Origin: Sphingomonas sp.
Lineage (GTDB): Bacteria; Pseudomonadota; Alphaproteobacteria; Sphingomonadales; Sphingomonadaceae
Length of the DNA stretch: 64,000 nt
Strand: one strand, 5' to 3'
Assembly: GCF_041659925.1 (NCBI RefSeq)
Contig: NZ_JBAZXI010000012.1
In this document: piece by piece, positions 2,696-58,382 of the stretch
Numbering within the stretch: the stretch's first letter is position 1
Layout: every line of letters starts with the position of its first letter
Notes under the pieces: model-generated
Told to the model about the DNA's origin: nothing
The model's database searches: none
The model's input: the letters and a program-made list of their open reading frames with translations, nothing else
Made by a program: the position numbers and the translations under genes

Positions 2696-2710
2696 CGTCT
2701 TCTTCCTTCA

Positions 2711-2838
2711 TTCCCTCTCCCACTGGGAGAGGGAGGGGCCCGCCCGCGCAGCGGGTGGGAGGGTGAGGACAGGTAAGGTCGCCGCCCTCACCCTTCCGGC
2801 GCTTCGCGCCTCCCTCCCTCTCCCGCGGGGAGAGGGAA
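2711..2838. repeat. Palindromic intergenic repeat doublet (TTCCCTCTCCC-nnn-GGGAGAGGGA hairpins, inverted arms)
   Basis: Hairpins at 2711-2734 and about 2815-2838 with inverted internal arms GGGAGGGTGAGG / CCCTCACCCTTCC. A degenerate relative lies at 40581-40633. Confidence 0.8.
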
Positions 2839-2841
2839 TGT

Positions 2842-3726
2842 TTACCCGTTCAACACCGCCAACAGCGTGGTGCCGAGCTCGCTGGGCGAGTCCGCGACCT
2901 TGATCCCGGCGGCTTCCATCGCCGCGATCTTGTCCTCGGCGCCGCCCTGGCCGCCCGAGACGATCGCCCCGGCATGGCCCATGCGACGACCCGGAGGCGC
3001 GGTGCGACCCGCGATGAAACCGGCCATCGGCTTCTTGCGACCGCGCTTCGCCTCGTCGCGCAGGAACTGCGCCGCTTCCTCTTCCGCGGAGCCGCCGATC
3101 TCGCCGATCATGATGATCGACTTGGTCGCGTCATCGGCCAGGAACAGCTCGAGCACGTCGATGAAGTTGGTGCCGTTGACCGGATCGCCGCCGATGCCGA
3201 CCGCGGTGGTCTGGCCGAGCCCGGCGTTGGAGGTCTGGAACACGGCTTCATAGGTAAGCGTGCCCGAACGGCTGACAACCCCGACCGAGCCCTGCTTGAA
3301 GATGCTGCCCGGCATGATGCCGATCTTGCACTGGCCGGGGGTGAGGACACCGGGGCAGTTCGGGCCGATCAGCCGCGACTTGGAGCCCGACAGCGCGCGC
3401 TTGACCTTGACCATGTCGAGCACCGGAATGCCTTCGGTGATCGTGACGATCAGCGGCACCTCGGCATCGATCGCCTCGAGGATCGAATCCGCGGCGAAGG
3501 GCGGCGGGACGTAGATCACCGACGCGGTGGCACCGGTCTTGGCGACGGCCTCGGACACGGTGTCGAACACCGGCAGGCCGATATGCGTCGTGCCACCCTT
3601 GCCGGGCGTGACGCCGCCGACCATCTGCGTGCCGTACGCCAGCGCCTGCTGGGTATGGAAAGTGCCGGTTTCGCCGGTCATCCCCTGGGTGATGACCTTG
3701 GTGTTCTTGTCGACGAGGATGCTCAT
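2842..3726 (-). CDS. sucD: Succinyl-CoA synthetase alpha subunit
   Basis: [53 protein letters not shown]. Confidence 0.98.
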
Positions 3727-3744
3727 CTATTCTCCGTCCTGCTC

Positions 3745-3776
3745 GTTCCCCGGCGAAGGCCGGGGCCCAGTTGGGA
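3745..3776 (+). repeat. REP-like inverted repeat, left copy
   Basis: GTTCCCCGGCGAAGGCCGGGGCCCAGTTGGGA, exact reverse complement of 4091-4122. Contains hairpin CCCCGGC-GAAG-GCCGGGG. Confidence 0.92.
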
Positions 3777-3788
3777 AAGCGGTCATGG

Positions 3789-4079
3789 TCACACGAGGCG
3801 ATATGAAAGGTCTTCCCATTCGGGATTGAGACCTTCGATCTCTCGCAGCTTCCAGGCTCGCTTCCACTCCTTCATCCGCAACTCGCGTTGCCGCGCATTC
3901 TCGATGCTGTCATGCGCCTCGAACCAGACGAGGGTGTGACAGCGATGTTTCTTCGTGAAGCCCTCGACCAGGTCGTTGCGATGCTCCCAGGCGCGTTTGG
4001 CGAGATCGCTCGTTACGCCCAGATAGATCGTTCCGTTTCTACCGCTCGCCATGATGTAGACGAAACCGGCCTTTTCCAC
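3789..4079 (-). CDS. Small GIY-YIG nuclease family protein
   Basis: FVYIMASGRNGTIYLGVTSDL, R-x-x-EH, EL-x-MKEWKRAWK-x-x-x-IE-x-x-NP-x-W-x-DL; 96 aa. Confidence 0.92.
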   Translation of the reverse strand: MEKAGFVYIMASGRNGTIYLGVTSDLAKRAWEHRNDLVEGFTKKHRCHTLVWFEAHDSIENARQRELRMKEWKRAWKLREIEGLNPEWEDLSYRLV

Positions 4080-4090
4080 GTCGAGGCTTC

Positions 4091-4122
4091 TCCCAACTGG
4101 GCCCCGGCCTTCGCCGGGGAAC
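4091..4122 (-). repeat. REP-like inverted repeat, right copy
   Basis: TCCCAACTGGGCCCCGGCCTTCGCCGGGGAAC, reverse complement of 3745-3776. Confidence 0.92.
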
Positions 4123-4133
4123 AGATAGTCAGA

Positions 4134-5165
<1,032 letters not shown>

Positions 5166-8466: not shown

Positions 8467-9615
8467 ATGAAGGCGAGCGCCTGTCGCAATGTCGACGACT
8501 TCCGCGAACTGGCGCGGCGGCGGCTGCCCTGGCCGGTATTCCACTATATCGACGGCGCCGCCGATGACGAGCTGACCAAGGCGCGCAACACGGCGGCATT
8601 CGACGACTGCGACCTCGTGCCGAGCGTGCTCGCCGGGGTCGAGACGATCGACATGTCGGTCACGGTGATGGGCAAGAAGGTGGCGATGCCGCTGTTTCTC
8701 TCGCCGACCGCGCTGCAACGGCTGTTCCACTGGCGCGGCGAGCGCGCGGTCGGCGCGGCGGCGATGAAATTCGACACCTGGTTCGGTATTTCGAGTCTCG
8801 CCACGGTCAGCATCGAGGAAATCGGCCGCACGGTGACCAGCCCCAAGCTGTTCCAGCTCTACGTCCACAAGGACAAGGGACTGAACCGCTCGATGATCGA
8901 GCGGTGCAAGGCGGCGAAGTTCGACGCCATCGCGCTGACCGTCGACACGATCGTCAGCGGCAATCGCGAGCGCTGCCGGCAGACCGGGTTCAGCTCGCCG
9001 CCCAAGCTCACGCCGCGCTCGGCGGTGAGCTTCGCGGCGCACCCCGGCTGGACGCTCGACTATCTGTTCCGCGAAAAATTCGCGCTGCCCAATCTCGACA
9101 CGCATGTCGATGCCGGCACCAAGATGTCGGTCTCGGTGGCGGAATATTTCAACACCATGCTCGACCAGTCGATGGACTGGAAGGCGGCCGAGGCGATTCG
9201 CGCCGAGTGGGGCGGCGCCTTCTGCCTCAAGGGCATCATGTCGGTCGAGGATGCGCGGCGCGCGGTCGATATCGGCGCGACGGCGATCATGGTGTCGAAC
9301 CATGGCGGGCGCCAGCTCGACGGCAGCCGTGCGCCGTTCGACCAGCTCGCCGAGATCGTCGACGCGGTCGGCGGCCGGATCGAGGTGATCTGCGATGGCG
9401 GCGTGCGGCGCGGCACGCATGTGCTGAAGGCGCTGTCGGTCGGCGCGACGGCCTGTTCGGGCGGGCGGATGTATCTCTATGCGCTGGCGGCGGCCGGGCA
9501 ACTCGGCGTCGAGACCGCGCTGGGCAATCTGCGCGCCGAAATCGAGCGCGGGATGAAGCTGATGGGGGTAACGTCGGTCGGGCAGCTGGGGCGGGATAAT
9601 CTGCGCTGGCGGTGA
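8467..9615 (+). CDS. FMN-dependent alpha-hydroxy acid dehydrogenase/oxidase (LldD-like)
   Basis: [38 protein letters not shown]. Confidence 0.9.
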
Positions 9616-26145: not shown

Positions 26146-26175
26146 CCGGCCTCGCCCGGCTCAGGGCGAGGCCGG
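26146..26175. terminator. 12-bp hairpin between convergent M16 and S8-PLD genes
   Basis: CCGGCCTCGCCC-ggctca-GGGCGAGGCCGG. No U-tract, so function is inferred from position only. Confidence 0.45.
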
Positions 26176-29100
26176 GTCGACCAGGTCGAGCAGCAACGGC
26201 GCGACGATGCCGATCGCGCGGTTGATGATCGGGTGGTGCGGCGGATGGACCGGGTCGAAGCGCGCCACGCCGAGCGCGGGATTGGGCACCATCGGCGAGG
26301 AGAAGCCGGGCCATAGCGATATGTCGGTGCCGTCGGTCGGTGCCGGCACGCCGAGATGCTCGCTCCACAGCCGCATGCGGAACTGCTGGGCGAAGGTCAG
26401 CCCGCTCGCCGAGGTCTCCGCGCTCTCGCCGCGCGCGGCGAGCGCGATCAGCGGCGGGCTGGCATTGGCGTCGTCGAAGATGAAGGCATCGACCTCGCTG
26501 TCATGCTGGTAGCCGCGCCGGTTGCAGTTGGCCGATCCGATCACCGCCAGCTCGTCGTCGAACACCCAGCACTTCGAGTGGACATAGCTCTCCCGCCCGA
26601 AGCTGTTCGGCGCACTGCCGCGCGGCTTGTTGAGCTGGAAGACGTTGAGCTTGGCCGCGACATCGGGGCTCTTGCCGGCGATCACCGCGTCGATGAACTG
26701 CTGGCGATAGAATTGCGGGAAGATCAGCCCGCCGCTGATCTCGTTGCCGGGGATCAGGATCGTGACGTGATTCAACCGATCGATCACCCTGTTAAGAGCA
26801 CGGGCCGTGGCAAGGTCGATCAGATACTGGTCTTCGATATAAATGAAGCGCTGGGCGTTGGCGATCGCGGTGATCAGCAGCCGGCCGATGTCGCGTTGTT
26901 TGGGCGGGCGCGTGCTGCCGGCGACCGGCGTCCAGGTCCGCGCGACGATCACCGAGGCGCTGCCGCCGAACGGCGCGTCGGCGAGTGACGGGTTGGGGAT
27001 CGCCGGCGCGGGAACGCCGGTGATCGGGTCGCCGCGCAACGCGCCCTTGGCGGCGTCGATCGCGCGGCCGTCAGGGTGGTCGAGCCAGCGCTCGACAAAG
27101 GTGCGCAGCAGCTCGCGCGTCGCCGGTCCGACGATGCGGCAATGCGTGTCGTGCTGCGGATCGCTCGGCCCGACCGCGCCGTGCGTGCCGGTGCCGCAGC
27201 TGGTGATGTCGGGCATCACGCGGTTGGGGTTGAGGTCGAGCCCGCCGCAATAGCCGACCAGCCGCTCCCCATCGAACACCAGCAGCACCTTCTGGTGGTG
27301 CGCCGCCTTGATGCCCTGCAGCTTGCGCGCGATCTCGTCGCGGATCCGCCGCCACTCGGCATCGACCGCGGGGTCGAGTCGCGCCAGCGCGAGGACGCCC
27401 GACGCCATCTGCATCGCCGCCTCGACCTGCGCCCGGCTGATCGGCACCGCCCCGCCGTTGCGGCCGTCGACGATGCCGCCGCCATTGGACAGCGCGTTGA
27501 TCCGCCCGATATTCTCGCGGATCACGCCCGGCTTGCTGAGATTGTCCCATACCATCGCGCGGACCTGCACGCCGCGCGATACGGCGGCGCTGAGCAGCGC
27601 GTTGAGGCTGGTGGTGCAGTCACCGTGGCGCAGCGGGAAATTGTCGTACATGTCCCAGCCGAGCAGGTAGATGAAGGCCCGGTCGCCCTGCGCGGCGCGG
27701 ATGTCGTCGACCATCGCGTCATAGGTCGCGGCGCCGTCGACCAGCGCCTTGACCGCGTTCTGCGTCGTGGTCGGCGCATTGGCCGAGCCGCGCAGGATCG
27801 ACAGCCAGCGGTCGGGCCGCAGCACGACGGTCGAGATCGGGATGATCGGCGGGACGATCGGGGGAATGATCGGCGGGAAGTCCGGCGGCGCATCGTCGCG
27901 CGCGAGGAGATCGAGCATCGCCCAGGTCTTCGGGCCGATCACGCCGTCCCACTCGCTCGGCTGGCCGGGAAAGGCGATGTGCTGGAACGACAGGGTCGCG
28001 GCGGCGGTGTTGGGGCCGAAGATCGCGTCGACGGTGAGCGGGCAGCGGTCGATCGGGCTCTGCATCGCCCCCACGCGCCGGGCGTGGACGCGGTTGAGCT
28101 TGGCCTGCGCCTCGGCGACCGCCGGGCCGGACGAGCCGCGCCGGATCATCGGGTGCGCGCCCGGCGGCGGCGGCACCGACTCGTCGGCAGCCTCGCCGGC
28201 ATGGCGCAGGATAACGCTGTCGTGGAGCATCAGCCCGTCGGGCCCGGTGACGCGCCGCGCGAAGCCCATCGGACCGCCGCCGGGTTCGATCACGCGGACA
28301 TAGCGGCCGGGCAGCGGCCCCTCGGTGACGACGCCGAGCCGGCGCATCGCCCCAGCGCCGAGCAAGGCGGGGTCGAGGATGACGGCGACCCGCGGTGCGC
28401 GCGTCGGGCCGTGGCGCAACAGCACGTCGCCGGGGCGCAGGTCGCCGGCGAGGCGTTGCCCCTGCCAGGCGACGACGCCGATCGACCGGTCATCGGGATC
28501 GAGCGCGCGGCGCAGCATCGTCAGCGGCGGTTCGCCGGCGAGCGCGGTCGGAAAGTCGGCGGGCGCGACACCGTCGCTCAGCAGCCGCGTGGCGGCATCG
28601 ACAAGATCCTGGGTCATGGATTCTCCTTCGCGGGGTGGCGCGGGTGGACGGGGCGGGGTTGCGACCGGCGGGGGAAGCGCGCGCGCGCGCGCCACCGCTT
28701 CGGCGATGGCGAGCTGGCCATAGCCCCAGCGCGGATCGTCGGAGCCGGGCGCGGCGAGCGTCGCGAACAGCGCGCGGCGCAACGCCGTGACGCGCTGCGA
28801 CCCGGCGGCCTGCATCATCAACGCGAGCGTGCCGGCGACGTGCGGCGCGGCCATGCTGGTGCCGCTCATCCGCATATAGCCGGGCGTCGCGGTGGGATCG
28901 CTGCGCGACCTGACCGAGAGCACGCGCACGCCGGGCGCGGCGAGCAGCGGCTTGCGGCGGCCGTCGCGGGTCGGCCCGACGCTGGAGAAGCTGCCCAGCG
29001 GGTGCGCCGGATCGTGCGCGTCATAGGCGCCGACCGCAATGGTGCGCAGCGCATTGCAGATGCTGCCGGTGGTCGATCGCCGATCGGCGAGGTCGTGGCG

Positions 29101-30366
29101 GAACTGCGCCTGGCACTTGGGACAGGCGGCATTGCGCTCGATCCAGGCGTGCCAGCGGCCATCGACCACGTCGACGCCCTCGATCTCGATTTCCCACACC
29201 CCCGCCACCGCTTCGCGGCGCAGGAACAGGTTGATCAGATTGTCGCCGCTATTGGGGTCGGCGATGCGATGATAGAGATGACCGACCTCGCGCCCATCGG
29301 CGAGCCGCACCGGCGCATCATGGCCGAGCGCCGCGACCGCCGACGCGCCGTCGGGGCCGCGCATCCGGGCGGCGAACTCGTCGGCACCGTTATACCAGAT
29401 CTCGACCGATACCGGGATCGCGTCGCGCCGCGTCATGCGGAAGGGGAGCTGCGCGGTGCGCGTCTCGCTGATCCGGCCGGACATATGGACGTCGCGCGAA
29501 TAATAGTTGCCCGTGCTCTGCACCACGGCGGTGCCCGGGCGATTGATCAGCAGCCAGTCGATCGCGCGCTCGACCAGCAACCTCCCGGTATGCGAGCCGC
29601 CATGGCGGCCGAGGCTGAGGTTGAAGACCAGCGGCCGGTCGGCGGCGGTGCGCACGGCGAAGTCGATCGCCTCGAGCAGCTCGATCGAGTTGCCGAGGTC
29701 GCCGCCGCCGCTGCCGAGATGGATGAAGATCAACCCCGCCTCGGGCGCGATGCCCTGCGGCCCGCCGGCGCGGCCATTGCCGGCGGCGATGCCGAGGACA
29801 TGCGTGCCGTGCGCATTGGCGGCCGGCGTATAGCCGAGCGCGGCGAACGGATCGGGCTGGCCAAGCGCGCGGTCGATCGCGGCGGGTGTGTGGATGCGGC
29901 CATAGCCGTAGCGATTGGCCGGCACCGCCGCGCCGCGCTGGTCCCACAGGCCGAGCAGGCGGGTCGAACCATCGGCGTTGCGGAAATCGGGATGGGCATA
30001 GTCGAGCGACCAGTCGATCACGCACACCGCCGTGCCACGCCCGGTTTCGGGGAGGTCGGGCGGCCGGCGGACATCGTCGGGCGCGATATCGGGCGGGTCA
30101 TCGGCCTCGCCGACGCCGTGGCCGTCATGATGGATCGCCTCAAGCTCGCGGGCATAGTCGCGCGGCGCCTTGATGCTGGCGATCGCCGGATCGGCATGGA
30201 GCGCGCGGAGCGCGCTGCGCTCGGTGCGCGCCGTGGCGACGACACCGAATTCGGCGACCAGCCGCAACGCGGCGGGCGCGCGGGCGCCGTGGTGGAGCCG
30301 GACGACGACGGCCACATCGTCGTCCGGCTCACCCTCGGCGATCAGTTCCTGGAGTGCGGGATCCAT
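26161..30366 (-). CDS. Fusion: S8 subtilase (Csp-like) + unknown domain + peptidoglycan-binding domain + phospholipase D
   Basis: Triad VIDWSLD (D118), HGTHV (H186), GTSMAAP (S504). PG-binding IRRGSSGPAV..DAIFGPNT..DGVIGPKTW. PLD HHQKVLLVFD and YVHSKCWVFDD..IGSAN. Confidence 0.88.
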   Translation of the reverse strand: MDPALQELIAEGEPDDDVAVVVRLHHGARAPAALRLVAEFGVVATARTERSALRALHADPAIASIKAPRDYARELEAIHHDGHGVGEADDPPDIAPDDVRRPPDLPETGRGTAVCVIDWSLDYAHPDFRNADGSTRLLGLWDQRGAAVPANRYGYGRIHTPAAIDRALGQPDPFAALGYTPAANAHGTHVLGIAAGNGRAGGPQGIAPEAGLIFIHLGSGGGDLGNSIELLEAIDFAVRTAADRPLVFNLSLGRHGGSHTGRLLVERAIDWLLINRPGTAVVQSTGNYYSRDVHMSGRISETRTAQLPFRMTRRDAIPVSVEIWYNGADEFAARMRGPDGASAVAALGHDAPVRLADGREVGHLYHRIADPNSGDNLINLFLRREAVAGVWEIEIEGVDVVDGRWHAWIERNAACPKCQAQFRHDLADRRSTTGSICNALRTIAVGAYDAHDPAHPLGSFSSVGPTRDGRRKPLLAAPGVRVLSVRSRSDPTATPGYMRMSGTSMAAPHVAGTLALMMQAAGSQRVTALRRALFATLAAPGSDDPRWGYGQLAIAEAVARARALPPPVATPPRPPAPPREGESMTQDLVDAATRLLSDGVAPADFPTALAGEPPLTMLRRALDPDDRSIGVVAWQGQRLAGDLRPGDVLLRHGPTRAPRVAVILDPALLGAGAMRRLGVVTEGPLPGRYVRVIEPGGGPMGFARRVTGPDGLMLHDSVILRHAGEAADESVPPPPGAHPMIRRGSSGPAVAEAQAKLNRVHARRVGAMQSPIDRCPLTVDAIFGPNTAAATLSFQHIAFPGQPSEWDGVIGPKTWAMLDLLARDDAPPDFPPIIPPIVPPIIPISTVVLRPDRWLSILRGSANAPTTTQNAVKALVDGAATYDAMVDDIRAAQGDRAFIYLLGWDMYDNFPLRHGDCTTSLNALLSAAVSRGVQVRAMVWDNLSKPGVIRENIGRINALSNGGGIVDGRNGGAVPISRAQVEAAMQMASGVLALARLDPAVDAEWRRIRDEIARKLQGIKAAHHQKVLLVFDGERLVGYCGGLDLNPNRVMPDITSCGTGTHGAVGPSDPQHDTHCRIVGPATRELLRTFVERWLDHPDGRAIDAAKGALRGDPITGVPAPAIPNPSLADAPFGGSASVIVARTWTPVAGSTRPPKQRDIGRLLITAIANAQRFIYIEDQYLIDLATARALNRVIDRLNHVTILIPGNEISGGLIFPQFYRQQFIDAVIAGKSPDVAAKLNVFQLNKPRGSAPNSFGRESYVHSKCWVFDDELAVIGSANCNRRGYQHDSEVDAFIFDDANASPPLIALAARGESAETSASGLTFAQQFRMRLWSEHLGVPAPTDGTDISLWPGFSSPMVPNPALGVARFDPVHPPHHPIINRAIGIVAPLLLDLVDPASP

Positions 30367-30404
30367 CGCATTTCACCTTTCTCCAGGGGTACGCCGCACC
30401 AGCG

Positions 30405-30833
30405 TCAGCTGGCGCTTTTCTTCGCCGGGGCGCTGGCCGCGGTCTGCGCATCGATGCTCGCGGCAAGTGCCGCGATCGCCGCCAGCAGCTTGGCGTTCTG
30501 CGCGTCCATCTGCTTGCCGAACTGGGCGAAGCCTTCGGCCAGCCCAGCCTTCAGGTCTTCCGCCGTGATGCCCGATGCCGTCGGCGTCGGCTGGGGCGTC
30601 GGCCCTGGCGTGGGCGGCGGTGGCGAGGCGCCCTCGCCGCCGGCCGTGCCGACCTCGCTCGCCCGCTGCCGGCGGCGTGCGCTCCTGATCGAGCTTTGCG
30701 CGAGCACGACGCCGACCGGCGACATGCCACCGACACCCATCAGCAAGCCGGCCCGGGTCGCCGCCGCGCCCGTCACTTTCTCCTTGCGCGCGATCAGCGT
30801 GCCGACCGCGAAGGCGGTTGTACTGAAGCTCAT
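30405..30833 (-). CDS. Hypothetical protein (hydrophobic N-terminus, Pro linker, C-terminal helix)
   Basis: CAGGAG RBS; 142 aa; co-oriented within tight cluster. Confidence 0.75.
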   Translation of the reverse strand: MSFSTTAFAVGTLIARKEKVTGAAATRAGLLMGVGGMSPVGVVLAQSSIRSARRRQRASEVGTAGGEGASPPPPTPGPTPQPTPTASGITAEDLKAGLAEGFAQFGKQMDAQNAKLLAAIAALAASIDAQTAASAPAKKSAS

Positions 30834-30858
30834 CTTTCGTCTCCTGGCTTGCGACGGC

Positions 30859-31458
30859 TCACTTGGTGAGTGCCATCAGCATGACGAGCGGACCGATCCC
30901 GCCATCGCCGCCGAACATGCCGCCGCCGGAGCCGGACGAGCCGCCGAAGCCACCGCTGAGCAACAGGATCGGCAGCAGCTTCGACATCTGGTCGCCATTG
31001 TCGATCACGACATTCGGCGTCCCGGCGACGGTGGCGGTGTCGGTCGTGCTGAGCAGCGGCAGGATCATCGCCATCTGGCGCGATTCATCGAGCCCCTTCT
31101 TGAGCGCGTCGGTCGCCTTGATGCGCTCGGCGACCTCATGCTTGAGGCTGGCGCGCAGCTTGTGCGTCTCGCTCTCGAGAGCGCGGGTGCGTCCGTCGAC
31201 CGTGGTGATCGCCTTGCTGTTGGTGGCGATCCGCGCGTCGAGCCGGTGCGCCGTGGCGTTCAGTTCGGCCTTGGTGGCATAACCGCCCGCGACCGGGTGC
31301 GGCACGGGGTTGCCGCGCTTCGCGGTCGGCACGCGCGGCCGGAACATCGGCCGGCCGCGGCGGCGCACCGCCTCGTCGGATTCGAACGCCTCGTCATAGG
31401 CCTCATCGCTCTCGACATCCTCGAGCAGTTCGCCGAAATCTTCGAAGGAATTGTACAT
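30859..31458 (-). CDS. Hypothetical coiled-coil protein with acidic N-terminus and Gly/hydrophobic C-terminus
   Basis: AAAGGA RBS; EDVESDEAYDEAFESDE, YATKAEL heptads, LLPILLLSGGFGG..GPLVMLMALTK. Confidence 0.82.
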   Translation of the reverse strand: MYNSFEDFGELLEDVESDEAYDEAFESDEAVRRRGRPMFRPRVPTAKRGNPVPHPVAGGYATKAELNATAHRLDARIATNSKAITTVDGRTRALESETHKLRASLKHEVAERIKATDALKKGLDESRQMAMILPLLSTTDTATVAGTPNVVIDNGDQMSKLLPILLLSGGFGGSSGSGGGMFGGDGGIGPLVMLMALTK

Positions 31459-31476
31459 GTTGCTGTCCTTTCGCCG

Positions 31477-31923
31477 TCAGTGAGTGGTGGTCTGCTCGGG
31501 CACGGTAGGTCGCGGGCGCGGCGGGCCGAGCAGCCGCGCGCGCAATTCGAGATCGGGTCGCACCATCCCGGGCCGGCCGCGTCCGCGGCAGCTCGGGCAA
31601 TAATCATCCTCGCCCCAGCACAGGCCGCAGGCGCCAAGCGCGGCGGCGAGATCGGCGAGGCGCTCGCTGGCGCCACGATGCGCCTCGAACAGGCGGCGGG
31701 CCTGGCGCTTCATCGCCTCGATCCGGCTTTCCGCCTCGGCGAGCCGCTCGGCCAGCGCGAGCACCTCGTCGCCGAGATCGTCGGCAACGGGCTCGGGCAC
31801 GATGGCGCGCGCCTGCATCATCTGGGCGAGCATCGCGAGTTGCGGGTTGCTGCGCTGGAGGTCGGCGATCATCTGCTGGGCGAGCGCGGCCGGATCGGCC
31901 GCCGCGAGGGCCGGATCAACCAT
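31477..31923 (-). CDS. Hypothetical coiled-coil protein with CxxC..CxxC motif
   Basis: ATG 31923 with GAGGA RBS, 8-nt overlap with upstream stop; GACGLCWGED-x-x-CPSCRGRG-x-PG. Confidence 0.8.
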   Translation of the reverse strand: MVDPALAAADPAALAQQMIADLQRSNPQLAMLAQMMQARAIVPEPVADDLGDEVLALAERLAEAESRIEAMKRQARRLFEAHRGASERLADLAAALGACGLCWGEDDYCPSCRGRGRPGMVRPDLELRARLLGPPRPRPTVPEQTTTH

Positions 31924-32902
31924 AGACCGGTTCCTCTTCGTACCATTCGGCCTCGCCGAGCGACCAGGTCTCGTCATTCTCCCAGTCCTCGACCGCATAA
32001 TCCTCGCCGGCGACGACGAGCGGCGGGGCGGGCTGCGGCGCCGGTTCGGCCGGCGCGACATTGACCGTCACCGGGCGCGACTGGGCATTGGGCCCCCAGA
32101 TCGAGGGCGACAGCGCGAGCAGCGTGAGCAGCGTGTCGGTGCGCCCCTCGGCATCCTCGACATCGACGCCGAGCGCCTCGCCGGCCTCGGCGATGAAGCC
32201 GGGCATGGCCTCGGCGGATTCGTCATATTCGGCCGCCTCATGCGCCGAGCGGTTGGCGAGCGTGCCGAGCGCACTGAGCAGCATATGAACCGGGATCTGC
32301 TGGCCGCCGACCGGGATCGACTGGCGGCCGAAGCTGCCCATCGCGGCCGAGGACAGCGCCTGCAGCGTCTCGGGCCTGGCAAGCATGCCGATCAGCCCAT
32401 TGGCGCCACCGCCCCCACCGCCGGTGAGCATCGCCAGCGGACTGCCGCCGCGACCGCCCGCCGCGCCGCCACCGATCGCACCGAGCGCGCCGAGCGCGCC
32501 GCCGGCGCCACCGCCACGGACGGTCGAGACGAGATTGCTGACGGTACCGATGCCACCGCCGATCGCCCGCGCGGTTGGGTTGCGGGAGTGCGACAGGACG
32601 CTGCCGGCACCGCCGGCGACCGCGCCGGCAAGCGCGCCCCAGGGCCCGAGCGCCGAGCCGGCCATCGCACCCGACACGATGCCGGGGGCGGCCTGCTGCG
32701 CGAAATGGCCGACCGCGCCCGCCGCATGTTTCAGGCCGCGGCCGATATCGTCGAACAGGCCTTCGACATCCTCGGCGCTGGCGCCCTCGCCATAGATCTG
32801 GCGGACAAGGGCATCGAGCTGTTGCGCGTCCGCCTCGGCATAAGCGGGCGAGAGGCTGGCGCGAAGCAGGGGGTAGTCCTCATGCATGACGGGGTTCCTC
32901 AT
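31916..32902 (-). CDS. Glycine-rich hypothetical protein with amphipathic helix, glycine zipper and acidic C-tail
   Basis: EGLFDDIGRGLKHAAGAVG, GAMAGSALGPWGALAGAVAGG, tail EDWENDETWSLGEAEWYEEE. ATGA overlap with upstream gene. Confidence 0.82.
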   Translation of the reverse strand: MRNPVMHEDYPLLRASLSPAYAEADAQQLDALVRQIYGEGASAEDVEGLFDDIGRGLKHAAGAVGHFAQQAAPGIVSGAMAGSALGPWGALAGAVAGGAGSVLSHSRNPTARAIGGGIGTVSNLVSTVRGGGAGGALGALGAIGGGAAGGRGGSPLAMLTGGGGGGANGLIGMLARPETLQALSSAAMGSFGRQSIPVGGQQIPVHMLLSALGTLANRSAHEAAEYDESAEAMPGFIAEAGEALGVDVEDAEGRTDTLLTLLALSPSIWGPNAQSRPVTVNVAPAEPAPQPAPPLVVAGEDYAVEDWENDETWSLGEAEWYEEEPVYG

Positions 32903-33165
32903 TCGGGCTGATCGGGGTCAGGCTGATCTGGGTCGGGCTGATCGGGCGGCGCGGCGACGTGACGGTCGACCAGGGCGGCAAGGCTTTCGAGGCTGTCGAA
33001 CGCGCCGAGCATCCGCCCGCCAAGCGCGGCGACGGTGCCGCGCAGGACCGGCGCGCCGCCGGCGACCGGCTCGAGCCAGGCACGCACGACCAACGTGGCG
33101 GCGCGGCCACCGATGGTGAATTGCGAAGCGGCTGGGCCCTGATCGTCATGGTCGGCTCCGTTCAT
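32899..33165 (-). CDS. Small hypothetical protein (88 aa)
   Basis: LVVRAWLEP..LRGTV..FDSLESLAALV; C-terminal PDQPD repeats; coupled to next gene. Confidence 0.7.
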   Translation of the reverse strand: MNGADHDDQGPAASQFTIGGRAATLVVRAWLEPVAGGAPVLRGTVAALGGRMLGAFDSLESLAALVDRHVAAPPDQPDPDQPDPDQPE

Positions 33166-33221: not shown

Positions 33222-33260
33222 GTCACGCCGCGATCACGGCGCCGTCACCGGATCATCACG
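33222..33260 (-). promoter_or_regulatory. Four GTGA-core direct repeats at exact 11-bp period; candidate SARP binding site
   Basis: Plus-strand TCAC at 33223, 33234, 33245, 33256, directly upstream of the five-small-gene operon. The fourth copy overlaps the BTAD stop codon. Confidence 0.65.
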
Positions 33261-34197
33261 GTTGCGCGAGCGCGCTGTCGATCAGGCCGATCGCGGTACG
33301 CATCTGGTCGCGCGTCGCGACAAGCACCTCGCGGAGGTCGCCATTCCCCGGCGTCGGCGCGGCCGATGCCATGGCCATCGGTCGTGCCGGCGCCGTCACC
33401 GCGACGCGGCCGCCCGGCGCGCAAAGACCGCGGTAAAGCGCGCTGGTTTCATCCATCGGCTCGACGCCGAGTTCGGCCGCAAGCACGGCGGCGCAGTGGC
33501 GATATTGCCGCAACGCGAGCGCGCGATTGCCGGTGCGGGCATAGCCGGTCATCAGCAGGCGGTGGGCATCCTCGCGCAGCGGCTCGGCGGCGGTCAGCGC
33601 GCGGGCGGTGGTGACGACGGCGCGCCAGTCGTCGGCGCGGGCATGGATGTTGGCGAGCGCATAGAGCGCGTCGAGCCGCAGACAGCGCAGCCGCTCGCGC
33701 TCGATCAACGCCCATTCGGCATCGACCATCGGCATGAAGTCGCCGCCATAACCGAGCAGCGCGCGGTGCAGCCGACGCCGCGCGGCGGGGTCGAGCGACA
33801 CCGTGCCCGACATGGCGGCGAGTGGTGCGGCGCGGCGTTCGAAAGCGAGCATGTCGACCCACAAGCCGTCGTCGAGCCGCAGCCGGACGCGCTCGCCGCT
33901 GGCCTCGACCGGGCAGGCGAGATCGCCGAACGCGCCCTTGATGCGATAGAGCGCGCTGGCCAGCGAATGTCGCGCGGCATCGCTCTCATGGTCGGGCCAC
34001 AGCGCCATGGCGAGCGCGTCGCGCTGTGCCGCGCGGCGCGGCGCGGCGAGCAGATAGCCGAACACCGGCCAGCAATTGGGCGGCACGGCGATGGTCGCGC
34101 CGCCGATCCGCGCGGCGGCGACAACACCCAATACCATAAGCCTCCAACGCGCCACGCAATCCCCCGGTTCGGTTTGGATTGCGACCCACCGGACCAA
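33256..34197 (-). CDS. SARP/AfsR-family transcriptional activator (wHTH + BTAD, no ATPase)
   Basis: RDALAMALWPD..ARHSLASALYRI; LWVDMLAFE; W-x-x-x-ERERLR; EPLREDAHRLLM..ALRQY..L-x-x-ELGVEP. TTG start uncertain. Confidence 0.9.
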   Translation of the reverse strand: MVRWVAIQTEPGDCVARWRLMVLGVVAAARIGGATIAVPPNCWPVFGYLLAAPRRAAQRDALAMALWPDHESDAARHSLASALYRIKGAFGDLACPVEASGERVRLRLDDGLWVDMLAFERRAAPLAAMSGTVSLDPAARRRLHRALLGYGGDFMPMVDAEWALIERERLRCLRLDALYALANIHARADDWRAVVTTARALTAAEPLREDAHRLLMTGYARTGNRALALRQYRHCAAVLAAELGVEPMDETSALYRGLCAPGGRVAVTAPARPMAMASAAPTPGNGDLREVLVATRDQMRTAIGLIDSALAQP

Positions 34198-35894: not shown

Positions 35895-36437
35895 CTACAG
35901 GCCCTGCGTCAGCCTAGGATCGTCGTGAGCGACCCACATCGCAGCTTCTTCCGCCCAAAGTGAGCCTGATTGGAGAGCTATTGGATCGACCGACTGGAGG
36001 AATCGAAACCAGCTATCGCGCAATCGCAGCGGCACTAGACCATCGAGAAAAGCGTCTGGCCCAAGCTCATGGCAAGTTTCACTGATCAAATGGCGGTATT
36101 GGAGAAGCGCTTCCGCAAGCGATGCTAAGTCTCGATTGACATAATGGATAGCGAGGCTGCTGTCATGATTGAGGTAGTGAATGTCGCCATTGGAGCTGAG
36201 GACGATAGGATCGCCTGAGCCGTTGGTGCCGATTTGCATGCCCGTGTCTGTAGCAAAATAGCTCGCGTATTTAGGCCCGAATGAAAGGCACGGGGCAGCA
36301 CCGCTTGGAAGGCCCGCCTCGAACAAAAAGTGCTTATCGGCAAATCTAAGCGGGAATTGATTGAGCAAGCCGAGGGGAAATGCGGCAAGAAAGTCAGGGT
36401 CGTCACCCCATTTCTCGGCAAACTCATCGGGTGTCAT
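35895..36437 (-). CDS. SUKH-4-like immunity protein
   Basis: FLFEAGLP..SF, IGTNGSGDPIVL..G-x-I-x-YLNHD..YVNRDLASLAEAL. GGAG RBS before ATG 36437; visibly AT-richer. Confidence 0.65.
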   Translation of the reverse strand: MTPDEFAEKWGDDPDFLAAFPLGLLNQFPLRFADKHFLFEAGLPSGAAPCLSFGPKYASYFATDTGMQIGTNGSGDPIVLSSNGDIHYLNHDSSLAIHYVNRDLASLAEALLQYRHLISETCHELGPDAFLDGLVPLRLRDSWFRFLQSVDPIALQSGSLWAEEAAMWVAHDDPRLTQGL

Positions 36438-36638
36438 ATAGATCGCTCCCCTCCGACAGCCGACGCGATACAGCCTAAAATCGCTTTTCCCAAATGTCTG
36501 CAACTGGGGCGACGGCTGCCCGGCCGCTTCTCTCCCCATTTCCAACCGGTCGCCTTTCGGGCGGCTAGGTCGCCTTGACGGCGAGGCGTAGCGGAAACGG
36601 TCAGCCGGTGCGCGGTTCGCCCGTTGCCCCGGCTGCGA

Positions 36639-39323: not shown

Positions 39324-39500
39324 CGCCGACGCCATTTCGACGGCAAGCCGCGCCAGTGCCGCGACCGACCGCCGCAATAATTACATTAACCATCAAGTGT
39401 TTCGCGGCGAGACACGGCAAAGTTCGCTGCGGAATTGCTAACGAATTCGGGCTATGGCGCGAAGCGCCGGAGGGTTCCGGCGGTGGAGCGCCGCGCGCCG

Positions 39501-40577
39501 ATGAATTTGGTCACGATCAGGGAATGGTTTCGCGTGCGGCGACTTAGCAGGGTCGGCGCGCTCGCCATCGCGTTCGTGATCTGTGCCGGGGTGTCGGCGC
39601 ATGCCGCGCTGCGCGCGATCGCGGCGCAGCCCGATGCCGGCGCAGAGGCGCCGCCGGCGCCGGTCGGCTATGAGGCGGAGGAGCATTTCCCCGGGGCGGC
39701 GGCGCTCTATGCCGACGACCCCGAGCCGGCACCGAGCGTGGCGCAGCCCGAGGTGACCGCGATCGCCGGGGCGACCGGCAGCACCGCGCTGCCCGATATC
39801 CCGCTGCCGCCCGGCGCCGAGGACTATGTCGCCGATGCGAGCATCCACCCGGCCCAGCCCTTTTCGATGAAGAATGCCAGCGCTGTCGACAAGGTCCGCG
39901 CGCTGCAATGCCTGACCGCGGCGGTCTATTACGAGGCGGCGACCGAGCCCGATGCCGGGCAGCAGGCGGTGGCGCAGGTCGTGCTCAACCGTGTCCGCCA
40001 CCCGGCCTTTCCGGCGACGGTGTGCGGCGTGGTCTATCAGGGCTCGGAACATAGCGGCTGCCAGTTCAGCTTCGCCTGCGACGGCGCCGCGACGCGCGCG
40101 CCGAACCGCGATTACTGGATCCGCGCGGCGAAGGTCGCGGCGGCGGCGCTGGGCGGGCGCGTGTTCGCGCCGGTCGGCCTCGCGACGCATTACCACACCT
40201 ATGCCGTGACGCCGCGCTGGAACCGCAGCCTGGTGATGACCGCGGCGATCGGCGCGCATTTCTTCCACCGCTGGCAGGGCTGGTGGGGCACACCGGCGGC
40301 GTTCAACCAGCGCTATGCTGGCGGCGAGCCCCTGCCCGCCCCGCATCCGCGCCCCGAAGCGCCCGCGCCGGTGCTGGCGGCAATCCCCGCCCCGCCGGTA
40401 ACCGCGCCAGCGGCGATCCAGCCGGGCTATGCGCAGAGCGGCAAGCCACTGCCGAGCGCGCCGGCGGTGACCGCGACGCACACCGCGACGGCCACGTCGG
40501 TCGTGCCGCCGGGCTATCAGAGCGACGACTCGCAGATCCTCGACAAATGGAAGGATTCGGGGAAGCCGCTGCGTTAA
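39501..40577 (+). CDS. Cell wall hydrolase (SleB / Hydrolase_2)
   Basis: CLTAAVYYEA, AVAQVVLNRV, VCGVVYQG, CQFSFACDG, ATHYH, IGAHFF. Confidence 0.93.
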   Translation: MNLVTIREWFRVRRLSRVGALAIAFVICAGVSAHAALRAIAAQPDAGAEAPPAPVGYEAEEHFPGAAALYADDPEPAPSVAQPEVTAIAGATGSTALPDIPLPPGAEDYVADASIHPAQPFSMKNASAVDKVRALQCLTAAVYYEAATEPDAGQQAVAQVVLNRVRHPAFPATVCGVVYQGSEHSGCQFSFACDGAATRAPNRDYWIRAAKVAAAALGGRVFAPVGLATHYHTYAVTPRWNRSLVMTAAIGAHFFHRWQGWWGTPAAFNQRYAGGEPLPAPHPRPEAPAPVLAAIPAPPVTAPAAIQPGYAQSGKPLPSAPAVTATHTATATSVVPPGYQSDDSQILDKWKDSGKPLR

Positions 40578-51191: not shown

Positions 51192-52301
51192 ATGGTCGAG
51201 ACGTTCCACCGACGGGCGATTGTCGCGGCCGGCATGACCCTTCCCGCATGGCGATTGATGGCCGCGGCGCGCCCGCGCGACCTGCGTGTGGCGCTGCTCG
51301 GCCAGGCGTTGATCCAGCAGGATCTGCGCCGCGTCGCATGGCCGGGCCGCGCGGCGATCGCCGCCTTGCTCGGGCGCGCCGATATCGCCTTCACCGATCT
51401 CGAAACGGCGATCGCCGGCGACGGGCTGACACCGACGCGGCAGAGCGAGGTGCTGCACATGGCCCCGCCCGCGGTGATCGATTGCCTTGCCGAACTCGGC
51501 GTGACGCTGGTCGCGACGTCGAACAACCATGCCTGGGATCTCGGCACGCCGGGCATCACGGCCGCACTTGCCGCGCTCGACGCGCGCCACATCGCCCATG
51601 CCGGCAGCGGGCGCGATCTCGCGGCGGCCAGCGCGGCGGCTACGCGTGCCAGCCCTGCCGGCAGCGTCGCGCTGGTCGCCGCGGCGGCGGGCGCGATCCG
51701 CGAGGGCGCCGCCGCTACCGCCACGCGACCGGGCGTCAACGAATTGCGGCGCGGCGCCGATGGCGCGTTGCTGGCCGAAGACGTTGCGCGCGTGCTCGCA
51801 TCGATCGGCACGGCGCGCCGCCGTGGCGACACGGTGATCGCCTATCTCCACAACCATTATTGGGAAACCGACCCGGCCGATACGCCGGGCTGGCAACGCG
51901 ATTATGCCCGGCAATGCATCGATGCCGGCGCCGCGGTGTTCGTCGCGCACGGCCCGCCATTGTTGCAGGGGATCGAACGCTACAAGGGCGCGCCGCTGTT
52001 CCACGGGCTGGGCAGCATGATCTTCCAGACGCGCAAGGGCGCGGCAGCCTACGGCACCGAAACGTGGCAATCGCTGGCGGTCGATGCGCGCTTTCGCGCC
52101 GGGCGCTTCGTCGGTGCGCGGCTCGTCCCGCTTCAGCTCGACGGCACGCGCGACGCGCCCGATGCCGAGTTCACGCGCGGCACCCCGGCCATCGCGCACG
52201 GACCACAGGCCCCGGCCATTCTGGCGCGCGTCACCACGCTGAGCGCAGGGCTTGGCTATGCGCTGTCCGTCACCGGCGACGAAGCGCGGATCGCCCCCTA
52301 A
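51192..52301 (+). CDS. CapA-like metallophosphoesterase-fold protein with Tat signal
   Basis: FHRRAIV twin-Arg; DLETAI, SNNHAWDLG, AHGPPLLQGIE, GLGSMIF. Confidence 0.82.
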   Translation: MVETFHRRAIVAAGMTLPAWRLMAAARPRDLRVALLGQALIQQDLRRVAWPGRAAIAALLGRADIAFTDLETAIAGDGLTPTRQSEVLHMAPPAVIDCLAELGVTLVATSNNHAWDLGTPGITAALAALDARHIAHAGSGRDLAAASAAATRASPAGSVALVAAAAGAIREGAAATATRPGVNELRRGADGALLAEDVARVLASIGTARRRGDTVIAYLHNHYWETDPADTPGWQRDYARQCIDAGAAVFVAHGPPLLQGIERYKGAPLFHGLGSMIFQTRKGAAAYGTETWQSLAVDARFRAGRFVGARLVPLQLDGTRDAPDAEFTRGTPAIAHGPQAPAILARVTTLSAGLGYALSVTGDEARIAP

Positions 52302-52690
52302 GGCACCGTCACCGTCATCTGTGCCGGCTGGTTGACGGTGATCACCCCGGCCCAGGCGCACATCAGCTTGCAGTTGGTGTCGAGCGCCGGGAGGTTGGCG
52401 ATCGTCACGGTCGGCGTGCCGGGGACCCATGGCGCCGGGATCACCGGCATGCATGGCATCGGCGTCAGCACGCCGAACGCCGCGGCGGTCGCCGAGGCGA
52501 CGGTCGGGTTGGCGATGCTGCTGCACATGCCGAACGGCGTGATGTTCACGATCGGCTTGTTGTCCATGATGGTGCCCGACGGGAAATTGCACGCCGTCAC
52601 CCGGTTGACCGGCAGCACGTTGAACGGCGCCGGTGCGGCGCCGAAGCTGCATTGCAGGATGGCGGTGGCGGTTACATCGGGGGTCGACAT
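52298..52690 (-). CDS. DUF4280 PAAR-like spike-tip protein (eCIS)
   Basis: LQCSFG, NITPFGMC, TPMPC-x-P..W-x-PG, C-x-LMCAW-x-G-x-I. Confidence 0.9.
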   Translation of the reverse strand: MSTPDVTATAILQCSFGAAPAPFNVLPVNRVTACNFPSGTIMDNKPIVNITPFGMCSSIANPTVASATAAAFGVLTPMPCMPVIPAPWVPGTPTVTIANLPALDTNCKLMCAWAGVITVNQPAQMTVTVP

Positions 52691-52712
52691 GGGTTGATCC
52701 TCATTTCCCTGC

Positions 52713-52741
52713 CGTCACCCCGGAACAAGTCCGGGGTGACG
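52713..52741. repeat. CGTC-type REP palindrome
   Basis: CGTCACCCCGGA-acaag-TCCGGGGTGACG, perfect 12-bp stem. Confidence 0.8.
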
Positions 52742-52772
52742 AATTGTGTTGCGAGGCGCAGCAACCGCACCC

Positions 52773-54152
52773 TCACCGACTGACATATTGCCCATCCTTC
52801 TGGCGTTCGCGGCGGATGCCGTCGATCAGGTCGGCGGCGTGGATCACCGGCGGGGTGCGCGCGACCGCCATCAGCGCGGCATAGCGCAGCACGTTGATGA
52901 TCGCGCCGCCGGCCAGCTCATGGTCGCGCGCGATGCGGGTGAAGTCGATGTCGGCGGCGATCTCCACCCCGCGCGCCGCGCCGAAGGTGTCGCGCCACAG
53001 CCGCTCGCGCTGTTCGACATCGGGCATCGGGAACAGCACCGCCGACTGGAAGCGCCGCGCGAACGCCTCGTCGAAATGGCTCTGCTGGTTGGTGGCGAGG
53101 ATCACCACGCCGGGAAAATCCTCGAGCCGCTGGAGCAGATAGGCGATCTGCTGGTTGGCATGGCGGTCATTGGCCGAGCTGGCATCGGTGCGCTTGCCGA
53201 ACAGCGCATCGGCCTCGTCGAAGAACAGGATCCAGTTCTGGTGCTCGGCATGGTCGAACAGCGAGGCGAGGTTCTTCTCGGTCTCGCCAATCCATTTCGA
53301 CACCACGCGCGACAAATCGACGCGGTAGACCGGCACATCGACGCGCTTGCCGATCAGCGCGGCGGTCAGCGTCTTGCCGGTGCCCGGCCCGCCATAGAAG
53401 AGGCAGCGATAGCCGGGCTTGAGCCGGCGGCTGAGGCCCCAGTCATCCATCAGCGTTTCGCGATGCTGTTGCCACGAGACGATCATCTCGATCTGCTCGC
53501 GGACGCGCGTGTCGAGCACCAGATCGTCCCAGTCGAGCGGCGTGGTGATCGGCGTGGCGGGGAAATCGGCCGAGGCGCGGGCGACGAACTCGGCGCCCTT
53601 GAGCAGCAGGTGCATCCCCGGCGCGGAAACGCGCAGCGCGCCGGCCAGCGGCGGCTCGTCGGGGTGGCGCAAATCGATGACCAGCACGCCGCGCCGGACT
53701 AGCGGCGCATCGGGCGCGAACAGATCGTCGAAGGCGAGCCGCGCGATGCGATCCTCGCCGGCGAGCAGGAACAAGGCCGTCTCGGCGGTCGGCAGGAAGC
53801 CGGCATGCGATTGCCCGGTCAGCCCGCCAAATTCGGTGAAGCGCCGCCCGGTCGCCTGGTTGGTGAGCAGAAACGGGTCGAGCGCGGCGGGCGCGAGATA
53901 GGGCGCCAGCGCCAGAGCCAGGACGAGCCGCTCGGCCGGGCCGAGGTCTAGCGCGCGGACCAGTTCGGCATAGGGGCCGCTCGCCTTCGCCAGCGACGGC
54001 GGGCCGGGCGGCTCGGGAACGGCGTCCCCCTCCCCGCCTTGCCCGCCATAGGCGGCGAAGCGCGCGCCCATCACCGCCTCCAGCCAGGCGAGTTCGCCCG
54101 CGACGACGTCGCCATTGGCGGCGCGCCCGCGCGTTGGCGGCGCGGCGTTCAC
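52773..54152 (-). CDS. AAA+ ATPase (Afp15/Pvc15-like, eCIS)
   Basis: GGPGTGKT, VVSKWIGETEKNL, LFFDEADALFGKR, YLLQRLE, DEAFARRF. GTGA overlap with tape-measure stop; start assumed. Confidence 0.9.
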   Translation of the reverse strand: MNAAPPTRGRAANGDVVAGELAWLEAVMGARFAAYGGQGGEGDAVPEPPGPPSLAKASGPYAELVRALDLGPAERLVLALALAPYLAPAALDPFLLTNQATGRRFTEFGGLTGQSHAGFLPTAETALFLLAGEDRIARLAFDDLFAPDAPLVRRGVLVIDLRHPDEPPLAGALRVSAPGMHLLLKGAEFVARASADFPATPITTPLDWDDLVLDTRVREQIEMIVSWQQHRETLMDDWGLSRRLKPGYRCLFYGGPGTGKTLTAALIGKRVDVPVYRVDLSRVVSKWIGETEKNLASLFDHAEHQNWILFFDEADALFGKRTDASSANDRHANQQIAYLLQRLEDFPGVVILATNQQSHFDEAFARRFQSAVLFPMPDVEQRERLWRDTFGAARGVEIAADIDFTRIARDHELAGGAIINVLRYAALMAVARTPPVIHAADLIDGIRRERQKDGQYVSR

Positions 54153-58333: not shown

Positions 58334-58382
58334 CACATGCCGCCCCGATCGGCCACGCGTGATCCATGGGCCCGGCAAACGC

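Follow-up and report, generated by a model that had tools for sequence, protein, structure and literature searches.

How does a soil-type Sphingomonas, which is not a spore former, come to encode one protein that joins a subtilase of the kind known from clostridial germination to a peptidoglycan (PG)-binding domain and a phospholipase D (PLD), and what might such a protein do? The question is raised by a 1401-codon gene in a stretch of 64,000 nucleotides (nt) from Sphingomonas sp. (RefSeq assembly GCF_041659925.1, contig NZ_JBAZXI010000012.1; genome GC content 68%), and this whole stretch is referred to here as the window. An earlier note, made from the DNA letters, had described a subtilase, a PG-binding domain and a PLD in one polypeptide with Pro-rich linkers between the domains, and had proposed a self-cleaving pro-toxin polyprotein. 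The intact open reading frame (ORF) and domain searches bear out the architecture, including the linkers, and the logic of a protease plus its cargo is a reasonable one; the gene is, however, not autonomous but the terminal gene of a conserved multi-gene module. The protein consists of known parts (a Csp-type subtilase, a PG-binding domain and a PldA-like PLD) set within a module that we did not find described.

A conserved module that ends in a subtilase and its cargo

The 1401-codon gene is the last gene of an operon, a-b-c-d-e-S8, which lies on the same strand as, and behind, a gene for a SARP regulator (Table 1). Genes a to e are tightly packed, with overlaps or gaps of no more than 38 nt. 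Proteins b to e have no match in Pfam, NCBIfam, PHROGs or PADLOC. The structural model of b has two confident domains (residues 10-60 and 165-265) and no fold relative in the PDB (Foldseek) or among viral structures (BFVD), protein d ends in repeated LLPLL-type hydrophobic stretches, and a hydrophobic, transmembrane-like N-terminal span is present in approximately 60% of the e family. The 11-bp-spaced hexamers, which lie between the regulator gene and gene a, are a putative SARP operator.

Five homologous loci, including the distant L003-L005 and those of actinobacterial metagenome-assembled genomes (MAGs) with a MerR or GerE regulator, show the order b-c-d-e-S8. When the motif that is invariant in protein c (LGAC..C.G.D..CP.C.GRGRPG) was searched for in 185,579 species genomes, 55 loci came up in Alpha-, Beta- and Gammaproteobacteria, Cyanobacteria, Chloroflexota, Acidobacteriota, Actinomycetota, Myxococcota, Gemmatimonadota and Eremiobacterota. 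Profile searches were then run on six-frame ORFs of 62 sequences (the 55 loci, six fetched earlier and the window), in which the first start codon was used, so that some N-termini are overlong. Protein b was detected in 59 of them, c in 62, d in 60, the fast-diverging e in 43 and a Csp-like S8 protease in 61; the order b-c-d-(e)-S8 holds on one strand throughout, and the misses fall at contig ends. Upstream activators differ between the loci, the SARP type being found in 17, a sigma-54 activator in nine, and MerR and GerE types elsewhere. The sigma-54-type activators are enhancer-binding proteins that replace SARP in loci of Pseudomonas and Acidobacteriota (L025, L028, L032, L036, L043, L044, L057, L059 and L062).

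Among 1.84 billion representatives, 424 clusters (50% identity) belong to the b family at E <= 1e-30, whereas the part of the S8 protein that spans the protease and the adjoining 'mid' domain occurs in only one of 200 other genomes of the window's own family. The module is thus widespread, reaching more than ten phyla, rare within any single lineage and partly plasmid-borne; in an annotated Streptomyces plasmid, RefSeq lists b to e as 'hypothetical protein'. No description of the module was found in domain libraries or in the searchable full-text literature, which leaves out most subscription journals, so that a prior description is possible. A phage origin was ruled out, given that b to e match no PHROG, that b has no BFVD fold match and that none of 50,697 phage records contains a module-type match, the only related entries being generic Csp-like subtilases in faecal phage contigs.

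Exchangeable cargo behind the protease

Past the S8 domain, the layout consists of a linker and then 'mid', which either continues the same ORF or, where the S8 protein is short, stands at the start of the next gene; downstream there are often one or two extra 'mid-X' genes. The domains attached to 'mid' were scanned with Pfam in 42 fused proteins and 22 separate cargo genes. Among the fused cargos, the domains are PG_binding_1 (23), OmpA (14), PG_binding_3 (9), M23 (6), PLD (6), PETase-like (4), LCAT (3), phage tail lysozyme (3), PhoD (2) and VanY (2); Amidase_2, SLT, DUF2272, trypsin and tyrosinase occur once each. The separate genes encode PLD (6), Amidase_2 (5), OmpA (5), Amidase_3 (4) and M15_4 (2), as well as one peptidyl-arginine deiminase (PAD) and one hemopexin. 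The PLD of the window is therefore one of many interchangeable cargos, most of which are directed at the cell envelope.

In a Gaiellaceae MAG, the second cargo (L004:14116-17159, plus strand) is composed of 'mid', PG_binding_1 and a PAD. It is followed by a gene for a 211-aa HEAT-repeat protein, which could be an immunity or inhibitor protein.

The protease part

The S8 domain matches Peptidase_S8 (PF00082) with E 3.5e-34 and 118.9 bits against a cut-off of 21.8. The complete D118/H186/S504 triad reported in the earlier note was found at these positions and is joined by an oxyanion residue, N287; each of the 56 family members compared keeps all four (56 of 56), and the protease looks fully equipped for catalysis. 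The supposedly unusual DWSLD motif around the Asp turned out to be a minor variant of a family-wide IDWGxD (Ser in 8 of 56). H186 and S504 are 318 residues apart, and the long insertion between them, likewise noticed before, is of the Csp type: clostridial Csp germination proteases are the best PDB matches (9pr8, 9t7m and 4i0w; E 3e-38 to 3e-22), and the alignment to them is unbroken over residues 97-519, taking in the insert, which may be likened to the jellyroll of CspB.

Among NCBIfam models, CspBA and CspC rank first, but with 138.5 and 94.1 bits they stay far below the respective cut-offs of 1250 and 675. Since Csp proteases lead both the NCBIfam and the PDB matches, the label 'Csp-type' is supported by the tools themselves, and judged by these scores the protein is a relative of the Csp proteases and not an ortholog of CspBA or CspC. 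The S8 proteins of the module range from 560 to 2310 aa, share the start MDPAL.EL..G..DEV..IVRL, and none has a hydrophobic leader or signal peptide. By analogy with CspB (PMC3567191), residues 1-96 are presumed to form a Csp-like prodomain.

The 'mid', PG-binding and PLD domains

The beta part of 'mid' has no significant PDB fold match (Foldseek). For the PG-binding domain that follows, the Pfam match to PG_binding_1 (residues 746-818) reaches 17.7 bits and stays below the cut-off of 23, but PHROG endolysin models match it at E 7e-8, and other family members match PG_binding_1 with E-values down to 3.5e-33. When an AlphaFold (AF2) model of residues 584-830 (pLDDT 82) is compared with the PDB, PG-binding domains rank first, namely those of the SleC zymogen (9h68, the best), SleB and phage endolysins, with a probability of 1.00. 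Going by these profiles and the model, the domain is real despite its weak Pfam score, in agreement with the earlier description.

The closest solved structure of the C-terminal 550 residues is PldA (Tle5a) of Pseudomonas aeruginosa (7v53, E 1.9e-13), followed by plant PLD alpha and human PLD1/2. The domain has two HKD-like motifs, the second of which is a canonical H-x-K-x4-D, as had been noted. In the first, the Asp had been described as displaced by one position; D1032 does lie one residue further on, but the position is not conserved (D, N, T, R, K or G in the family), while HHQK and the entire second motif are invariant, and the displacement as a meaningful feature was thus discarded. Taken together, the sequence points to an intact-looking, eukaryote-like PLD of the PldA/Tle5 kind.

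The match to 7v53 agrees with the Tle5/PldA class proposed in the earlier note for the enzyme; the analogy to an interbacterial effector, in contrast, fails with regard to genomic context. No match to TssC/VipB, the sheath protein of the T6SS (type VI secretion system), is present in the host genome (99.98% complete), and the flanks of the locus contain no T6SS genes. Only 21 nt separate the PLD stop codon from a convergent M16 peptidase gene, and in 19 loci the PLD cargo has no recurrent co-directional small (immunity-like) gene behind it. A T6SS effector was ruled out by the missing TssC and the missing immunity gene.

Elsewhere in the window, a 216-aa ORF (35895-36545, minus strand) has a weak match to the SUKH-4 immunity proteins (E 2e-4, below the Pfam cut-off). 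It is located 1.7 kb past the SARP gene in a patch of lower GC content (34-36 kb, 0.63) and could be an orphan immunity gene.

One polypeptide or two: the protease/cargo junction

The 1401-aa ORF has a GC content by codon position of 0.72/0.52/0.90, which is typical of genuine genes in the host genome, and a genome search found one copy and no paralogues. An ORF on the plus strand that overlaps it (27076..32064) was rejected as a high-GC shadow frame, its translation being Arg/Ala/Gly-rich nonsense.

At the DNA level, the gene corresponds to two pieces of the locus of a close relative, Sphingomonas sp. RT2P30 (L001): nt 1-2483 are 84% identical to the 5' part of the L001 S8 gene, and nt 1729-4206 are 87% identical to a separate PLD gene downstream of it, together with 21 nt of upstream spacer. 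The AAGGAG-N6-ATG of this spacer is retained in frame in the window gene, where it is read as ...R-E-G-E-S-M584, and an AAGGAG and ATG signal also precedes 'mid' within the RT2P30 S8 gene itself. An in-frame GGAG or GAGG with ATG or GTG was found between -5 and +45 codons from the end of the S8 domain in 31 of 47 fused ORFs, compared with approximately 4 expected from the density of such sites elsewhere within the same ORFs. This signal could be a remnant of gene fusions that took place repeatedly, or it could serve as an independent translation start of the cargo, and the data fit either. The single polypeptide is one of two interchangeable states, with the cargo either fused or separate. As the cargo is a separate gene in L001 and has its own in-frame Shine-Dalgarno sequence and ATG, the appearance of free cargo would be no proof of self-cleavage.

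It is extremely improbable that the fusion is an artefact in which neighbouring protease and PLD genes were wrongly joined near 28620: the existence of the PLD unit as a gene of its own in RT2P30 and the Shine-Dalgarno sequence and ATG at the fusion point would be in keeping with such an error, but the frame is open, GC at third codon positions is uniform across the junction, S8 fused to 'mid' is the majority state within the family, and the same architecture recurs in separate assemblies at identities of 88% (P0004), 80% (P0005/L002), 57%, approximately 50% and 36-37% (L003-L005), and also in L011. The assemblies that share it come from several phyla and include the Gaiellaceae MAG and a 1.5-Mb contig; they contradict the assembly fusion at this point for which the earlier note had allowed.

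Table 1. Positions in the window of the operon, its regulator and the parts of the 1401-aa protein, in the direction of transcription
Feature	Position	Strand	Size or residues	Characteristics or basis
BTAD/SARP-family transcription activator gene	33256..34197	-		domain search
Four direct hexamers (C/G)GTGA(T/C), spacing exactly 11 bp	33222..33260	-		upstream of gene a; read from sequence
Gene a	32899..33165	-	88 aa	before b in 14 proteobacterial loci only
Gene b	31916..32902	-	328 aa	helical N-domain, Gly-zipper-rich middle, confident C-domain, acidic/aromatic tail
Gene c	31477..31923	-	148 aa from M47 of ORF	coiled coil and invariant LGAC..C.G.D..CP.C.GRGRPG zinc-ribbon-like motif
Gene d	30859..31458	-	199 aa	acidic/aromatic head, Arg patch, coiled coil, Leu/Met-rich and Gly-rich tail
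Gene e	30405..30833	-	142 aa	weakly hydrophobic conserved N-terminus, Pro/Thr linker, C-terminal helix; PASTA domains in relatives
Whole ORF, S8 protease - mid - PG-binding - PLD	26161..30366	-	1401 aa	one open frame; P0001
N-terminal region	30079..30366	-	residues 1-96	no signal peptide; family-wide start MDPAL.EL..G..DEV..IVRL
Subtilase catalytic domain with Csp-type insert	28672..30078	-	residues 97-565	Pfam, NCBIfam and PDB matches
Catalytic codon D118	30013-30015	-		catalytic Asp
Catalytic codon H186	29809-29811	-		catalytic His
Catalytic codon N287	29506-29508	-		oxyanion Asn
Catalytic codon S504	28855-28857	-		catalytic Ser
Pro-rich linker, protease/cargo junction	28615..28671	-		ends with in-frame AAGGAG (28623-28628) and ATG (M584, 28615-28617)
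'Mid' domain	28162..28614	-	residues 585-735	three helices and small beta domain (AlphaFold model); N-terminal mark common to module cargos
PG_binding_1-type domain	27901..28149	-	residues 740-822	Pfam (sub-threshold), PHROG, fold match
Phospholipase D domain	26164..27816	-	residues 851-1401	PLDc_2 and PLDc above Pfam cut-offs
HKD1, H1024-Q-K-x5-D1032	27271-27297	-		HHQK invariant, Asp variable in family
HKD2, H1263-S-K-x4-D1270	26557-26580	-		canonical

Proposed function and its alternatives

We favour, tentatively and at somewhat less than an even chance, the view that the 1401-aa protein is the protease-cargo subunit of the widespread b-c-d-e-S8-cargo module and acts as a protease-gated, envelope-lytic effector whose release is coupled to lysis and aided by b to e. 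On induction, the Gly-zipper protein b, the soluble Zn-ribbon coiled-coil protein c, the Leu/Met-rich, hydrophobic-tailed protein d and the anchor e with its outward PASTA or helical part would make an opening or a gate in the cytoplasmic membrane with no need for an ATPase, and the signal-less protease and its cargo would thereby reach the cell wall. There the PG-binding domain would dock both on the murein, and the subtilase may cut the linker, the pro-region or the 'mid' region, as CspB cuts pro-SleC. The freed PLD would then hydrolyse membrane phospholipids, and the released enzymes might also strike neighbouring cells. As to the target, we lean slightly towards the producer's own envelope, that is, regulated lysis or release similar to the type 10 secretion system, over an action on the envelopes of neighbours only. 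The absence of an immunity gene, an ATPase and a T6SS, the endolysin-like binding modules and the tight regulation are consistent with lysis or release.

Several observations weigh against this proposal. A hydrophobic span of 19 residues (Kyte-Doolittle average of at least 1.5) is absent in 46 of 59 b proteins and 51 of 60 d proteins; with b and d mostly devoid of classical spans and e having one in only approximately 60% of cases, a membrane pore is conjecture. None of the proteins b to e resembles a holin, endolysin or spanin family in PHROG, Pfam or NCBIfam, and the model of b has no relative among PDB or viral folds. The window locus contains no peptidoglycan hydrolase, only a PLD, and the PAD, tyrosinase, trypsin and hemopexin cargos, together with the arrays of polymorphic cassettes, are more suggestive of weapons than of a set of lysis tools. 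The loci are mutually related, so that the counts given above overstate their independence. Finally, export, cleavage, activity and target are all inferred from domains and gene context.

The alternative that survives best, although we consider it unlikely, is a secreted interbacterial or anti-eukaryotic polymorphic toxin, in which b to e would form a new export route, the S8, 'mid' and PG-binding regions a trafficking and maturation part, and the PLD a swappable warhead, with the producer surviving. A constant N-terminal part followed by highly variable C-terminal enzymes and then by tandem 'mid-X' cassettes is what such a toxin would look like, and the composition of the window gene, the 5' part of an L001-type S8 gene plus the L001 PLD cassette, with the junction at a repeated module boundary, is as in cassette swapping. 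The relation of the PLD to the T6SS effector PldA, the HEAT-repeat gene after the PAD cargo, and the rare and patchy distribution (one of 200 other genomes of the family) point in the same direction. On the other hand, none of the loci examined has a conserved immunity gene beside a PLD cargo, neither an ATPase nor any other source of energy is part of the module, no known trafficking domain is present and the genome has no T6SS, and phage endolysins are equally modular and yet are not weapons.

Two other functions appear considerably less probable still, and to a similar degree. The first is abortive infection or anti-phage suicide, in which a cytoplasmic subtilase would sense infection and free envelope-destroying effectors on its own cell. 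The PADLOC 'subtilase' model matches the S8 part (E 6e-23), DrmC (PLD) is matched weakly, and both the sporadic distribution and the lack of an immunity gene would be expected of such a system; however, PG-binding, OmpA and PASTA domains work outside the cytoplasm, the SARP, sigma-54 and MerR activators point to induced and not standing expression, and, one Mrr gene at a distance of 8 kb aside, nothing in the flanks resembles a defence island. Proteins b to e match no PADLOC family, which also ruled out a known defence system. The second is a developmental or housekeeping role in envelope remodelling, i.e., a Csp/SleC-like switch by which cells leave dormancy, break their filaments or separate, and which would be neither a toxin nor a lysis device. 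Here, the protease is nearest to germination proteases, the PG-binding part of the cargo is nearest to SleC and SleB, many cargos are merely PG binders (OmpA in 14 of 42), and hosts of the module include filamentous cyanobacteria, actinomycetes and myxobacteria. Against this, the module is dispensable, since it is found in only one of 200 other genomes of the same family, some of its copies are plasmid-borne, and, among the cargos, PLDs, lipases and PADs do not count as remodelling enzymes.

Comparison with known systems

In the germination cascade of clostridia, CspB cuts pro-SleC (PMC3567191). The CspB/CspBA-SleC pair shares with the module a leaderless subtilase with a Csp-specific His-Ser insert and an N-terminal extension, and the Csp substrate is the zymogen of an envelope hydrolase with a PG_binding_1 domain, the SleC zymogen (9h68) being at the top of the fold matches of the cargo. 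The differences are that the host of the window forms no spores, that the score remains far below the CspBA cut-off (138 versus 1250 bits), that protease and presumed substrate are parts of one covalent chain, that this cargo is a PLD and not a lytic transglycosylase, and that the protease of the module always comes with the four orphan proteins b to e.

PldA/Tle5a is a T6SS phospholipase D effector of P. aeruginosa (PDB 7v53; PMC9550806). It resembles the C-terminal half of the window protein, of which it is the best solved match, in being a eukaryote-type PLD with two H-x-K motifs. In the window family, by contrast, the Asp of the first HKD motif is not conserved and the PLD comes after a protease and a PG-binding part, in a genome with neither a T6SS sheath gene nor an adjacent immunity gene.

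Type 10 secretion and phage-type lysis cassettes consist of a holin, a peptidoglycan hydrolase and a spanin (PMC10847048). They and the module have in common signal-less, wall-binding hydrolases beside small, predicted membrane-associated proteins, a dedicated regulator, endolysin-like PG-binding modules and no ATPase. In contrast to these cassettes, no holin, endolysin or spanin family is detectable in b to e, b has no viral fold relative, the large protease of the module is obligatory, and the window locus has a PLD in place of a muramidase.

The module resembles candidate defence systems of the IetAS and subtilase type in PADLOC through its S8 domain, which hits 'subtilase' and, weakly, IetS; there is no partner ATPase, b to e are unmatched in PADLOC 2.0, and the effector domains would act outside the cytoplasm. 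Polymorphic toxin systems (Rhs, CdiA and similar), reportedly set out by Zhang et al. in 2012, served as the last basis of comparison. Like these, the module combines a conserved N-terminal part with variable C-terminal enzymatic domains, and has downstream cassette arrays with common N-terminal homology and apparent replacement of cassettes by recombination. Unlike them, it lacks cognate immunity genes, with the HEAT-repeat gene after the PAD in L004 as a single possible exception, contains no known trafficking or pre-toxin domain, and carries envelope hydrolases instead of nucleases or deaminases.

Other features of the window

Part of an extracellular contractile injection system (eCIS) is encoded at 52298-58444 and 60492-63981 (both minus strand), 22 kb from the S8 module, and includes a PAAR-like DUF4280 protein, an AAA ATPase and a 1431-aa CIS tape-measure protein; a 691-aa ORF and three glycosyltransferase genes come after the eCIS genes. 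A CIS tape-measure gene occurs in 6 of 47 module-bearing genomes, which may exceed the background. That the module is a cargo or lysis cassette of the eCIS at 52-58 kb was rejected, as an eCIS in only 6 of 47 genomes is clearly not obligatory. A Sphingomonas MAG has a protein with weak eCIS_core (DUF4157) and faint Ntox15 matches 5 kb from its S8 module (L002:16254-18494, plus strand).

A 380-aa Hydrolase_2 protein, i.e., a cell-wall hydrolase of the SleB/CwlJ type (39435-40577, plus strand; E 2e-26), is encoded 5 kb from the module. Genes for such hydrolases are common in Alphaproteobacteria, and the proximity of this one to a Csp-like module is probably a coincidence. The Mrr-type restriction endonuclease mentioned above (Mrr_N and Mrr_cat) lies at 18256-19134 (plus strand). 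A 'tRNA-???' with a two-base anticodon reported by ARAGORN at 9279-9361 (minus strand) is probably a false positive or a degenerate tRNA.

Implications

In its broadest form, the proposal is that b, c, d and e together with the Csp-like subtilase constitute an ATPase-free release or lysis apparatus of a new class, with 'mid' as the address of the cargo and the protease responsible for maturation and release, of which the Csp/SleC switch would be a specialised offshoot. We regard this as possible but doubtful. Should the module act as we propose, this would explain how signal-less enzymes that degrade cell walls or membranes, a large class, leave the cytoplasm in bacteria that lack the usual routes, and it would provide a non-sporulating counterpart of the proteolytic switch from Csp to SleC. 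The module adds four conserved protein families (b to e), and its swappable cargos, such as PLD, lipases, M23 peptidases, amidases and lysozymes, amount to a collection of enzymes that act on the envelope. Where protease and cargo meet, the conserved internal start offers a case in which one gene may make two products.

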